NCBI GenBank assembly: GCA_964016885.1
Contig: OZ024763.1
Coordinates: 20,150,001-20,214,000, forward strand
DNA: 64,000 nt
Direction of reading: 5' to 3'
From: Eledone cirrhosa
Taxonomy: Eukaryota
Shown here in pieces: positions 4,227-42,989 of the stretch. Within the stretch, counting starts at the first letter, position 1. The number at the start of each line of letters is the position of its first letter. Position numbers and translations under genes: made by a program. The notes under the pieces were generated by a model. It saw only the letters and a program-made list of their open reading frames with translations. It was not told the DNA's origin and made no database searches.

Positions 4227-4613
4227 TCGTTTCTGAATTTGTTTAGCAAGATTCTTTATCTGAAATCGTGTGTTGAAACCGATATTGTTATACTTTGGGA
4301 GGGTCATGTTGCCAATAAGAAACACACGCACCAGTTGCTTTCACTTCAATTTATTATATATTTATAAATTTACAAATTTATAAATTTTTTTACAAATTTA
4401 TGAATTTATAAATTTCTGGTTGGTTGGTTCCACAACCAGATAGTTGTTTATATATAGTCATAGTCCTTTCGTCACACACTCTGTGACCTCTTCAGTGACT
4501 GGGGATTCCTTTCTTTGTTTTGTAAATTTATAAATATATAATAAATTGAAGTGAAAGTAACTGGTGCGTGTGTTTCTTATTGGCAACATGACCCTCCCAA
4601 AGTATAACAATAT
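4227..4613 (-). mobile_element. Penelope-like solo pseudo-LTR with inverted arm
   Basis: 4227-4510 is nearly identical to 31952-32220, which adjoins the GIY-YIG ORF. 4282-4376 is inverted at 4519-4613. (TA)n on both sides. Confidence 0.85.
4456..4500 (-). ncRNA. Minimal type I hammerhead ribozyme motif
   Basis: AGUCA-CUGAAGA-G-GUCAC(agagugu)GUGAC-GAAA-GGAC-UA|UGACU: 5-bp stem I, 5-bp stem II and a very short stem III. Confidence 0.75.
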
Positions 4614-4634
4614 ATATATATATATATATATATA

Positions 4635-4877
4635 TATATTAATAAAAGGAATTCCAACTTTGTCTGATTTACTCGTTTTATTTACAATCCTTTAAAATTA
4701 TAATGATATTATAATGAAATAGTATGGTAGAATATTAAGTGTTAAGTCGAGGCGTTCAATTAACATTTAACACTTAATATTCTACCATAGTATTTAATTA
4801 TAATATCATTATAATTTTAAAGGATTGTAAATATAACGAGTAAATCAGACAAAGTTGGAATTCCTTTTATTAATATA
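4635..4877. repeat. Fold-back inverted repeat (~110 bp arms, ~21 bp spacer), probable PLE-type insert
   Basis: 4635-4745 is the reverse complement of 4767-4877 with few mismatches. Starts at a (TA)n tract. Confidence 0.85.
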
Positions 4878-5254
4878 ATCTTCTATACACAATTATACAC
4901 ACATATAATAAATCATGTCCCTAGAATTATTAAATAAAATATATACTATTTCCTGAAATATATACTATTTCGTGAACGGTTGCCACATATATATCTGTGA
5001 CTTTATGTATATGTAAATCTTATATATATATATATATATATATATATATATATATATATATATATATATATATATACCTCATATAACTGTACAAATTGCC
5101 TCCTGTGTCTTGTTCGTTTCATTTATTAACTATATATATAGGGTCGTCAAGTATGAAATTTGTAGAAATTTTTTCTTTTTTTTCTACAAATTCCTACAAA
5201 TTTCATACTTGATGATGAAATATATATATATATATATATTGTACCATAAATAAT

Positions 5255-5440
5255 TGTTTCTACTTTAGGCACAAGGCCAGCAATTACCCAGTACATTACT
5301 GGTACTTTATTTTATCGACCCCGTAAGGATGAAAGGCAAAGTCAACCTCAGCGGGATTTGAACTCAGATCGTAAAGGGACGTAACTATGCTGGAAAGCAT
5401 GGCGTCCGACCCTCTACCGATACTGCCAATCCACCGCCCT
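5255..5440 (-). mobile_element. SINE family A, full length
   Basis: A box tggcagtatcgg and B box gagttcaaatccc on the - strand. 16-bp TSD ttgtaccataaataat at 5239-5254 and 5441-5456. Confidence 0.9.
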
Positions 5441-5699
5441 TTGTACCATAAATAATACGTAAGACCCCGGTGACATGTTCAGCCAGGGGAGTCCTGCAAG
5501 ATTAATCCGCCAATTTTTGTACCAGGAATGTTCTGAAATGTTTATATTGTTTTATATGTACAAGTATTTATATAAGCCGGCATATGCGTGTATGTATGTA
5601 GGTAGATATGTGTGTCTGTGGGTGGGTAGATATGTGTCTGTGGGTGGGTAGATATGTGTCTGTGGGTGGGTAGATATGTCTGCGCATGTACTGTAAAAA

Positions 5700-8095
5700 A
5701 GTCATGACCCTGTTACCAGCGAAGACATGACCCTGTTACCAGTGAAGACATGGCCCTGTTACCAGCGAAGTCATGACCCTGTTACCAGCGAAGTCATGAC
5801 CCTGTTACCAGCGAAGACATGACCCTGTTACCAGCGAAGACATGACCCTGTTACCAGCGAAGACATGACCCTGTTACCAGCGAAGACATGACCCTGTTAC
5901 CAGTGAAGTCATGACCCTGTTACCAGTAAAGTCATGACCCTGTTACCAGTAAAGACATGACTCTGTTACCAGTGAAGACATGACCCTGTTACCAGTGAAG
6001 ACATGACCCTGTTACCAGTGAAGTCATGACTCTGTTACCAGTGAAGTCATGACTCTGTTACCAGTGAAGACATGACCCTGTTACCAGTGAAGACATGACC
6101 CTGTTACCAGTGAAGTCATGACCCTGTTACCAGTGAAGTCATGACCCTGTTATCAGTGAAGACATGACCCTGTTACCAGTGAAGTCATGACCCTGTTACC
6201 AGTGAAGTCATGACCCTGTTACCAGTGAAGTCATGACCCTGTTACCAGTGAAGTCATGACCCTGTTACCATTGAAGTCATGACCCTGTTACCATTGAAGT
6301 CATGACCCTGTTACCATTGAAGTCATGACCCTGTTACCATTGAAGTCATGACCCTGTTACCAGTGAAGTCATGACCCTGTTACCAGTGAAGTCATGACCC
6401 TGTTACCAGTGAAGACATGACCCTGTTACCAGTGAAGACATGACCCTGTTACCAGTGAAGACATAACCCTGTTACCAGTGAAGACATGACCCTGTTACCA
6501 GTGAAGACATGACCCTGTTACCAGTGAAGACATGACCCTGTTACCAGCGAATACATGACCCTGTTACCAGCGAAGACATGACCCTGTTACCAGCGAAGAC
6601 ATGACCCTGTTACCAGCGAAGACATGACCCTGTTACCAGCGAAGACATGACCCTGTTACCAGCGAAGACATGACCCTGTTACCAGCGAAGACATGACCCT
6701 GTTACCAGCGAAGACATGACCCTGTTACCAGCGAAGACATGACCCTGTTACCAGCGAAGACATGACCCTGTTACCAGCGAAGACATGACCCTGTTACCAG
6801 CGAAGACATGACGCTGTTACCAGCGAAGTCATGACCCTGTTACCAGCGAAGACATGACCCTGTTACCAGTGAAAACATGACCCTGTTACCAGCGAAGACA
6901 TGACCCTGTTACCAGCGAAGTCATGACCCTGTTACCAGCGAAGTCATGACCCTGTTACCAGCGAAGACATGACGCTGTTACCAGCGAAGACATGACGCTG
7001 TTACCAGCGAAGACATGACCCTGTTACCAGCGAAGTCATGACCCTGTTACCAGTGAAGTCATGACCCTGTTACCAGTGAATACATGACCCTGTTACCAGC
7101 GAAGTCATGACCTTGTTACCAGCGAAGACATGACCCTGTTACCAGCGAAGACATGACCCTGTTACCAGTGAAGTCATGACCCTGTTACCAGTGAAGACAT
7201 GGTCCTGTTACCAGTGAAGCCATGGCCCTGTTACCAGTGAAGACATGGCCCTGTTACCAGTGAAGACATGGCCCTGTTACTAGTGAAGACATGGCCCTGT
7301 TACCAGTGAAGACATGGCCCTGTTACCAGTGAAGACATGGCCCTGTTACCAGTGAAGACATGGCCCTGTTACCAGTGAAGGCATGACCCTGTTACCAGTG
7401 AAGACATGACCCTGTTACCAGTGAAGTCATGACCCTGTTACCAGTGAAGACATGACCCTATTACCAGTGAAGACATGACCCTATTACCAGTGAAGTCATG
7501 ACCCTGTTACCAGTGAAGACATGGCCCTGTTACCAGTGAAGTCATGGCCCTGTTACCAGTGAAGTCATGCCCTGTTACCAGTGAAGTCATGACCCTGTTA
7601 CCAGTGAAGTCATGACCCTGTTACCAGTGAAGTCATGACCCTGTTACCAGTGAAGTCATGACCCTGTTACCAGTGAAGTCATGACCCTGTTACCAGTGAA
7701 GTCATGACCCTGTTACCAGTGAAGACATGACCCTGTTACCAGTGAAGTCATGACCCTGTTACCAGTGAAGTCATGACCCTGTTACCAGTGAAGTCATGAC
7801 CCTGTTACCAGTGAAGACATGACCCTGTTACCAGTGAAGACATGACCCTGTTACCAGTGAAGACATGACCCTGTTACCAGTGAAGACATGACCCTGTTAC
7901 CAGTGAAGACATGACCCTGTTACCAGTGAAGACATGACCCTGTTACCAGCGAAGACATGACCTTGTTACCAGCGAAGACATGACCCTGTTACCAGCGAAG
8001 ACATGACCCTGTTACCAGCGAAGACATGACCCTGTTACCAGCGAAGACATGACCCTGTTACCAGCGAAGACATGACCCTGTTACCAGCGAAGACA
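5700..8095. repeat. 23-bp minisatellite, ~104 copies
   Basis: Unit catgaccctgttaccag(c/t)gaag(a/t), head-to-tail, with no spacers. Confidence 0.97.
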
Positions 8096-8179
8096 CAGTG
8101 TAAGAATAAAATTCAAAAGAAAAACAAACATTTTGAAGAAATATCTTTTACAAAAATGTAAATAATAATAATAATAATA

Positions 8180-41433: not shown

Positions 41434-41691
41434 TATATATATATTTGCTTTTAGCGTGTAATCACAGATAGTTAAATATTCCCCTTTGCCGATGATCCAA
41501 GATTTGACATATATGATTCACCGATTAATGGTGAAATCAAAGGAGATTAATCATTATTGCAGGTTCTTGTTAATTTTTAATATGTTACCTCCGAAACTAT
41601 GTGTGTTTACACTCTTTACAAATTATCCCCTGTAATGGTTTGATATGTTTATTTTATATATATATATATATATATATATATATACATATAT

Positions 41692-42020
41692 GTCAATCGA
41701 TTTTTAATTTGTTATACTTGGGGAGGGTCATATTGTTGTAATAATAACAGAACACACTCACTGTTCGATTGGTTTTATATCTCCATAGTTAATTTATTTG
41801 GCAATCAATGTTTATCATTGATTGACCAACGGTTAAATATATATATATATATATATATATATATATATATATGTCAATCGATTTTTAATTTGTTATACTT
41901 GGGGAGGGTCATATTGTTGTAATAATAACAGAACACACTCACTGTTCGATTGGTTTTATATCTCCATAGTTAATTTATTTGGCAATCAATGTTTATCATT
42001 GATTGACCAACGGTTAAATA
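41692..42020 (-). repeat. Tandem duplication (180 bp period) of a pLTR end fragment
   Basis: 41692-41840 is identical to 41872-42020. Contains ttgttatacttggggagggtcat. Another related copy lies at 42720-42960. Confidence 0.8.
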
Positions 42021-42170
42021 TATATATATATATATATATATATATATGTATATATATATATATATAGTCTATCGAAGTTTTAATTTAATGTTAATAAATG
42101 GTCGTATTTTTTACTTGGAATATTTAATCTAATTTTGGTACTATATATATATATATATATATATATATAA

Positions 42171-42383
42171 ATAATTGTTTCTACTTTTGGCACAAGGCCA
42201 GCAATTATCCCAGTGTATTACTGGTACTTTATTTTTTCGACCCCGTAAGGATGAAAGGCAAAGTTAACTTCGGCGGGATTTTGAGGTTAACTTTGCCTTT
42301 CATCCTTTCGGGGTCGAAAAAATAAAGTACCAGTAATACACTTGGATAATTGCTGGCCTTGTGCCAAAAGTAGAAACAATTAT
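42171..42383. mobile_element. Head-to-head inverted pair of SINE A 3' halves
   Basis: 42171-42268 versus 42286-42383, in (TA)n. Confidence 0.9.
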
Positions 42384-42599
42384 ATTTATATATATATATA
42401 TATTTATATATATAGTATGGTTTAAGTATCGTAAGAGAGGATGAAGCAGAAAGGTACAAAGAGGTGCGATACAGAATACTAAATGCCAATAGCCGAAGCG
42501 TGTTACGCTCGATGCTTGAGTTAACAGGGTTAAATATTAGAGGAAGTTAATATTTTGCGTATGGTTTCAGCAGAGCGGGAATAAGCAAATGAATGAGTA

Positions 42600-42667
42600 A
42601 AGGAGTTACAAGCCGTTAAAATAAGTCCTTTATATAAAGGACTTATTTTAACGGCTTGTAACTCCTT
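42600..42667. repeat. Perfect 68-bp palindrome centred on tatata
   Basis: aaggagttacaagccgttaaaataagtcctttat|ataaaggacttattttaacggcttgtaactcctt. Extends imperfectly to 42581-42698. Confidence 0.92.
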
Positions 42668-42989
42668 CTCTCATTCATTCATTCATTCATTTGCTTATAT
42701 ATATATATTTATAGCGGCGATGAATTAGTTTAGCGAGGTTTTTTATATGAAATCGTGTGTCGAAACAGATATTGTTATACTTGGGGAGGGTCATATTTGC
42801 GTAATATTGCCAGAATTAATAACAGAACACACTCACTGTTTGGTTGGTTTTCGCTTTTCGCTGTCTTTTATATCTGCGATCTAACTTACTCGGTCCTCAA
42901 TGTTGCCATTGACTGACCGACGGTTAAAAATAATACAGATACAATATAGACACAAACACATATATATTTATATATATATATATATATAG

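Follow-up and report, generated by a model that had tools for sequence, protein, structure and literature searches.

Fold-back palindromes at (TA)n tracts in a 64-kb stretch of Eledone cirrhosa DNA, probable stumps of several Penelope-like element families

A stretch of 64,000 nucleotides from Eledone cirrhosa (contig OZ024763.1 of assembly GCA_964016885.1, forward-strand positions 20,150,001 to 20,214,000, hereafter the window) holds many inverted duplications, most of which abut (TA)n tracts. Most of these palindromes are probably dead-on-arrival insertions of several families of Penelope-like elements (PLEs), the cDNA of which would have folded back while joining a (TA)n tract, a reading to which a probability of roughly 0.7 is given. 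An earlier note, made from the letters of the window, had listed 16 such sites, named here by its start positions, and had ascribed them all to one shared machinery, plausibly the reverse transcriptase (RT) and GIY-YIG endonuclease of a PLE. The link to PLEs, the TA microhomology and the fold-back from one template stand, but a single PLE machinery for every site is too wide and is not supported as stated, since site 42171 is a short interspersed element (SINE) with direct-flanked sister copies and site 28615 derives from the terminal inverted repeat (TIR) element at 206-310. As both have folded back, a general snap-back step of the 3' end is likely to be shared, and what is common to the palindromes is likely to be this finishing step and not an enzyme.

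The palindromes and their flanks

Simple repeat accounts for about half of the window (49% masked). The masked window was scanned for inverted repeats with arms of at least 20 bp and loops of no more than 200 nt, with 20 dinucleotide shuffles as the control. The scan returned 18 rows at 16 loci, namely 15 of the 16 listed sites, which serve as the denominator throughout, and an unlisted locus at 41040; every shuffled window gave zero palindromes. Direct alignment found the inverted arms in place at all 16 listed sites. Their arms range from 20 to 183 bp and total 2636 bp, or 4% of the window, and the loop is 0-39 nt long in 15 of them and 142 nt in the other. The weakest are 5145 and 10686, with arms of 20-25 bp, and 5145, the arms of which are 25 bp long, was recovered neither by masked self-BLAST nor by the scan above. 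Between arms there are 21 substitutions (12 transitions and 9 transversions) and one 3-nt indel, three arm-edge mismatches being excluded. The inverted duplications, short spacers and few mismatches of the earlier description are therefore borne out, and the palindromes are confirmed, as far as the assembled letters go, as genuinely present. The claim of many unrelated families holds in part: several families are present, as well as the SINE and the TIR element, but they are fewer than the sites, with 28933, 37266 and 63704 belonging to one family (C) and 30337 and 39079 to another (D).

Fold-back chimeras of the library or assembly are a very improbable source. They would ignore family tails and would not stop after 50-180 bp, and the differences between arms, which look like ageing, argue against them together with the ends, which fall on identical bases in separate copies of a family; tracts are also present on both sides. 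What could speak for chimeras is that the three best-sharing sequencing runs (0.54-0.60 of sampled words) are one sample, possibly the assembly's own source. The run search found 10 runs, seven with part of 28400-38000 and three, the single sample, with at least half of its words; it is not junction-specific and is not used as support.

The proposed association with (TA)n is clear in the window. The outer end lies within 5 nt of a tract of at least five TA units in 11 of the 16 palindromes, whereas random intervals gave a mean of 1.9 and a maximum of 6, with none of 1000 trials reaching 11. The five palindromes outside this group are 5145, 10686, 28615, 36373 and 37497, the last having its TA run in the centre. 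An extension is found on one arm only in 10 of the 16, measuring 33-34 nt in family D, 54 nt in family A and about 70-165 nt in the remainder, and there is none at 19278 or 42171. In eight of these ten, representing six of seven families, at least 3 nt of alternating A and T stand at the start of the short arm, compared with a background of 7.8% of positions, as the idea that the inverted arm stops at an internal TA motif had anticipated; the exceptions are 28933 and 36373. Arm ends were placed by extension, and chance may add one or two bases.

Links to Penelope-like elements

The protein link to PLEs comes through family A. The palindrome at 4282 belongs to a minus-strand stump at 4228-4613 with (TA)n on both sides, in which a 54-nt tail (4228-4281) is followed by arms at 4282-4376 and 4519-4613, and its 142-nt loop contains a type I hammerhead motif (core 4495, minus strand). 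Masked self-BLAST matched it to a longer minus-strand copy at 31954-33250, which shows no inversion, is 5'-truncated and has an identical tail and a hammerhead motif at 32203. The open reading frame of this parent copy closes, at 32412-32882, with a GIY-YIG domain (Pfam PF01541, 23.5 bits with a cut-off of 22.6) that is preceded by a CX4CX2C linker and followed by a stop codon and the hammerhead-bearing 3' region. There are 2363 homologues at E<=0.001, three long ones of which have RT-type motifs ahead of the match, as judged by eye. The upstream frame of the parent matches homologue P0002 across a frameshift. A word-index search among longer proteins gave no match for the endonuclease. In PMC8557442, Neptune and Nematis elements are defined by a CX2-5CxxC linker before GIY-YIG, and Naiads share the motif but have the endonuclease at the N-terminus. 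Judged by its motifs, family A fits a PLE of either the Neptune or the Nematis type; its RT is missing from the window, and the other families differ in being without protein evidence. Those that also have no hammerhead could be Naiads.

A type I hammerhead descriptor of our own gave six matches in the window, all in families A, G and J, as compared with 0.23 per shuffle and none at the same score in 30 shuffles, and the features agree with the description in PMC4209133. One of the matches in family A lies in a plus-strand relative at 38420-38706 (motif at 38469), which has no inversion and takes its start from the internal ATAT where the short arm of 4282 also begins. The family G stump of site 35531 (35447-35862, minus) has a tail of about 80 nt, arms of about 160 bp with one 3-nt indel, and a 15-nt loop; a full minimal type I hammerhead is present in both arms (35633 minus, 35756 plus). 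Site 37497, family J (37498-37795, plus), has a full hammerhead at 37547, and its 5' end, which meets a central (TA)9, is mirrored for 27 bp.

Partial hammerhead motifs are found in families C and F. The three family C stumps are all on the plus strand: 28933-29118 has 50-bp arms, a 2-nt loop and an extension of about 84 nt, each arm holding the 3' half of a hammerhead (GAAAC-stem III-GTC); 37266-37460 has perfect 57-bp arms, a 4-nt loop and a 78-nt extension; and 63704-63921 has perfect 57-bp arms, a 2-nt loop and a 103-nt extension that includes an internal 25-bp duplication. An older, previously unlisted relative at 29567-29690 (plus) has its fold centre at a stem-II-like hairpin just before GAAA. 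A 21-nt motif of this family matched three metagenome contigs, but these are GC-rich and alike at the motif alone, and the matches were put down to chance. Family F is represented by site 36373 (36374-36608, no strand assigned), with 68-bp arms, a 31-nt loop that contains a degenerate hammerhead core (36475, minus) and, on the arm to which the loop does not seem to belong, an extension of about 69 nt. The idea that these arms are a long stem I of natural origin was rejected, since most of the arm mismatches are not wobble pairs. The sense of the hammerhead runs from the centre outwards in families A, C, G and J, so that both RNA 3' ends face the flanks.

PLE marks are therefore present in seven of the 16 palindromes (families A, C, F, G and J), and four more are PLE-like by architecture alone. 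These are the family D stumps 30302-30739 (site 30337, minus; perfect arms of 183 bp, a loop of 39 nt and a tail of 33 nt, with (TA)n flanking either side) and 39078-39479 (plus, in opposite orientation; 34-nt tail, 179-bp arms, 10-nt loop), family B at 4635-4877 (no strand assigned; arms of 111 bp, a loop of 21 nt and an extension at the right end only) and family I at 42416-42698 (site 42600, minus; no loop, core arms of 34-46 bp, a left extension of about 165 nt). Three others are unclassified or weak, and none has an assigned strand. Site 19278 (19282-19546) is symmetric, with 118-bp arms, a 29-nt loop, the same (TA)n junctions at both ends and a CTGATGA in each arm without a full hammerhead. 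Site 5145 (5147-5212) is an unclassified weak palindrome with 25-bp arms. Site 10686 (10708-10762, 20-bp arms) is the second copy of a small hairpin-shaped repeat, the other lying at about 10497-10578, and may not be a fold-back. Families B, D and I and site 19278 gave no hammerhead descriptor match and no blastx match to 151 endonuclease-region proteins, though parent copies could be situated beyond the window.

Other copies in the window have related features. A hammerhead-like core is also carried by another repeat family, which lacks mirror arms and occurs at 15921-16007, 36206-36373, 37815-37985 and 62463-62533 and also at 9072, where the copy starts a few bases before the core and right after (TA)n, as at 37497. 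Family A relatives at 41656-42053 and 42715-42960 have (TA)n on both sides, one of them in a 181-bp tandem pair, and the 42715 copy ends at an internal ATATAT, which amounts to a TA-homology join without inversion.

How the arms may have been made

Variants shared between the arms bear directly on their origin. When the two family D palindromes are compared, 22 variant columns split by locus and none by arm type, and the three pairs of family C give 3, 4 and 5 columns by locus and again none by arm type; columns differing in a single arm or otherwise number 4, 0, 2 and 2 in the D and C comparisons. This pattern supports the copying of both arms from one template molecule, in keeping with the fold-back that had been proposed. 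The fold points differ between the sister copies 30337 and 39079, and the family D palindromes were likely formed anew at each insertion. The three family C copies fold at nearly the same point, which may reflect a shared palindromic ancestor with later correction of the arms. Loops of no more than 40 nt occur in 15 of the 16 palindromes; when pairs of independent lengths were crudely resampled, the figure was 39% per pair. Where an unfolded copy displays the natural continuation, the junction homology is 5 nt at 4282, 2 nt at 42171 and 2 nt at 28615. The centre of the fold falls within the hammerhead or on its border in the three family C copies, 29567, F and J; in A, G and 19278 (the last without a full hammerhead) it is 23-60 nt upstream of the core.

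The favoured explanation can be set out in four steps. From what is known of PLE biology, a GIY-YIG endonuclease would cut within (TA)n and reverse transcription would start at a fixed tail site of the family; sister copies do start at the same base. The cDNA would then halt after 60-300 nt, often in or beside the hammerhead, and its 3' end would pair with 1-5 nt of itself, a step on which the short loops and the junction homologies bear, the latter where a parent copy permits the check. Thirdly, the fold-back strand would copy the cDNA, and identical copy-specific variants are seen in both arms. Finally, copying would stop at an internal ATA or TAT able to anneal to the opposite (TA)n end, so that just one arm keeps the tail, and eight of the ten short arms end on ATA or TAT. 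The second to fourth steps would need just a free 3' end and a self-complementary target, and so would also act, less often, on SINE cDNA (42171) and on the repair of a DNA-transposon end (28615).

Several observations weigh against this explanation. A full hammerhead or a protein-linked parent is found in just three of the 16 palindromes, with partial motifs in four, architecture in four and three unclassified or weak. No Pfam RT domain was found in any of the seven family A homologues tested; no Rfam hammerhead matched in 35400-38000 at E<=10, and none is among the matches listed for the whole window, where there are below-threshold hairpin-miRNA matches only. The folding z-scores of six hammerhead-like stretches are unremarkable (-1.17 to +0.62). 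By our count, roughly one in two fragments of PLE type in the window has no inverted arm, and the extensions of 54-165 nt exceed the published 30-40 bp PLE tail. Later gene conversion could equalise arms too. At 36373 the loop seems to be part of the arm that lacks the extension, an arrangement not obtainable by a single snap-back, and the unmirrored copy ending at 38706 has its start at the internal ATAT, which shows that this site can serve as a start point too.

The last two observations would suit dual priming, in which a PLE dimer cuts both (TA)n strands and primes two cDNAs on one RNA, at the tail and at an internal TA-like site, which are then joined head to head. Purified PLE protein has indeed been described as cleaving and extending both strands, with two adjacent RNA start sites that bracket the tail (PMC11167929). 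The very short loops, however, would require both cDNAs to stop at almost the same base, and the in vitro start site of that work is without target homology, whereas the short arms here mostly end on ATA or TAT. [quoted passage not shown] Within the favoured explanation, snap-back of a single cDNA takes a slight majority of the weight, two primings on one RNA around a third and other routes a small residue; self-folding of a 3' end is favoured by the short loops, by the SINE and 28615, and by 37497 with its TA centre. Snap-back and dual priming lead to one and the same product, and both may occur. Ownership of the loop by one arm or the other, and any tracking of TA motifs by the ends of the short arms, would tell them apart.

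Classical L1 twin priming, which the earlier note had offered beside fold-back, yields an inversion without duplication; it does not fit here and was rejected, since the arms of these palindromes duplicate one sequence. Inversion and fold-back inverted duplication are likewise kept apart as outcomes in PMC10191854.

The SINE at 42171-42383 (no strand assigned) is folded on itself, with 98-bp arms, both 3' tails facing outwards and the 2-nt junction homology given above. Its family has 10 copies in the window and presumably resembles an octopus SINE. Direct flank words of 10-18 nt were found at eight of the nine other copies, two of which lie inside TA-rich DNA, and none was found at 58590; the family is likely to be mobilised by a long interspersed element (LINE). 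Two private variants are present in both arms of 42171 and absent from the nine other copies. ARAGORN found 0 tRNA genes, and the SINE had no match in the searchable files of the MetaSINE supplement. Two further SINE observations can be added: at 35890-36126 the 5' end of a copy runs into a 53-bp copy of DNA lying 290 bp downstream (36362-36414), followed by a short direct repeat, as if the template had been switched to genomic DNA close by, and at 59379-60913 two inverted copies stand 1.3 kb apart, 97% alike over 104 bp.

TIRs flanked by TA are found with both ends present at 206-310 and 41039-41431, and site 28615 (28612-28679, no strand assigned; 4-nt loop) keeps one full end of the 206-310 element, folded back; it is not a PLE. 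All three are presumably of the Tc1/mariner superfamily. The 41039-41431 element, which has a third, internal copy of its terminal repeat at 41181-41213, was rejected as a fold-back, its arms being ordinary terminal repeats. Such elements, together with the symmetry of 19278 and the existence in plants of DNA transposons that target TA microsatellites (PMC4486113), lend something to the notion of self-propagating miniature inverted-repeat DNA transposons aimed at TA or (TA)n. For the set as a whole this is highly unlikely in view of the one-sided tails, the differing sister fold points, the locus-tracking arms, the hammerhead motifs and the GIY-YIG parent, although it could still hold for 19278 and 10686.

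The presence of fold-backs in three element classes, and the TA at the centre of 37497, could also point to host repair of breaks at fragile (TA)n tracts without transposition, where a resected end would fold into the flank and copy it before being rejoined through TA microhomology. At LINE-1 breaks, 3' ends that anneal to themselves over 2 bp of homology are reported to give inverted duplications (10.1101/2024.12.14.628481). Such repair predicts a central TA, which is seen in one of the 16. What is mirrored, moreover, is in almost every case the 3' end of a fixed-end repeat family, and the remainder of the element does not reappear past the second arm. None of the palindromes was found to consist of flanking DNA that is clearly unique, several being unclassable. 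Host repair is an unlikely origin for the set, and about an even bet for 28615 and 37497.

Known systems, double-stranded RNA and neighbouring features

The layout of the palindromes is already known, being that of published PLE insertions, which are described as an inverted 5'-truncated copy with a 30-40 bp tail and a bias to (TA)n (PMC8557442). In Craig et al. (2021, PMC8557442) and Arkhipova et al. (2013, PMC3846280), the insertion units of endonuclease-bearing (EN+) PLEs resemble the present ones in their head-to-head inverted, 5'-truncated copy, the tail at one end, which 10 of the 16 palindromes have here, the preference for (TA)n or AT-rich DNA, the type I hammerhead near the end and the self-priming already proposed for head-to-head junctions (PMC3846280). 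They differ in that here at least six families lie within 64 kb, tails reach 54-165 nt, short arms end on TA microhomology, and the fold-back extends to a SINE and to one end of a DNA transposon. New here are the single template for both arms, the differing fold points of sisters, the short loops and the short-arm ends on internal ATA or TAT (8/10). A literature search returned no paper on PLE palindromes in octopus, subscription papers being outside its coverage, and published supplements of PLE consensus sequences may contain these families.

Other systems offer partial likenesses. Poseidon of Anolis in vitro (Frangieh et al. 2024, PMC11167929) also has two start points separated by the tail, AT-rich targets and a cDNA that passes through an uncleaved hammerhead, but its start site is without target homology, whereas the inner end here is usually homologous. 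In the snap-back 5' junctions of R2 (PMC11204384) and the inverted duplications at LINE-1 breaks (10.1101/2024.12.14.628481; PMC10191854), a 3' end similarly self-primes with little homology and joins the other end. For L1 the quoted percentages amount to a fold-back inverted duplication in 3-4 of about 1200 events (PMC10191854); in contrast to this rarity, about half of the PLE-type fragments and one in 10 SINE copies are affected here. The palindromic Harbinger repeats of Xenopus, which are RNA-editing substrates (Porath et al. 2017, PMC5625713), fold on themselves with no need of an inverted neighbour, as would these, but they are DNA-transposon consensus palindromes, whereas those described here were likely made anew at each insertion.

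How PLEs form inverted structures and choose microsatellites is named in PMC8557442 as a question still open, and many PLE families side by side would provide a large natural test of snap-back against dual priming. According to the available passages of Porath et al. (PMC5625713), which explain the frog case only, Octopus bimaculoides has the highest near-perfect double-stranded RNA potential, at 4.4e-3 of 50-bp loci. A similar but not identical count on the non-simple tiles of the window, made with different methods and on a different assembly, gave 57 of 2400 (2.4%), of which 48 came from listed palindromes, seven from an inverted SINE pair and two from terminal repeats. If the host is an octopus and the stumps are transcribed, they would be candidate substrates for editing and small RNAs and could help to explain the high double-stranded RNA potential of octopus. 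A much broader proposal is that in (TA)n-saturated genomes, because the target is self-complementary, a free 3' end of any kind, whether of PLE cDNA, of SINE cDNA or of a DNA transposon under repair, can snap back, frequently at the helices of the hammerhead, and be rejoined through TA microhomology. This single route would supply most of the near-perfect double-stranded RNA in the transcripts of octopus and explain its record A-to-I hyper-editing; this is speculative and considered doubtful.

The minus strand at 14574-15307 is likely to hold the terminal exon of a host gene for a fibronectin-III membrane protein. The putative exon matches the fibronectin type III domain (Pfam fn3, E 5.6e-4, below cut-off; Atlas 0.93) and has a hydrophobic segment, and an AG acceptor rich in pyrimidines stands ahead of it. 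No upstream exon was found and a word-index search among longer proteins gave no match. Given a minus-strand terminal exon at this position, sites above 15310 may be intronic.

Remains of other mobile elements are also present. The decayed element at 1200-3600 is likely to be a Helitron, as it has a PIF1 helicase domain, and a decayed non-LTR (long terminal repeat) retrotransposon with AP endonuclease and RT domains lies at 20322-24552. Fragments at 43000-43600 (minus), 55960-56240 (plus) and 58140-58400 (plus), which gave no Pfam match in the two frames tried, we take to resemble mariner transposase and the restriction-like endonuclease ends of non-LTR elements. Satellites are found within 5699-8095, 43647-44292 and 57700-58150, with a 23-bp unit repeated 104 times, a 102-bp unit repeated six times and a unit of roughly 64 bp.

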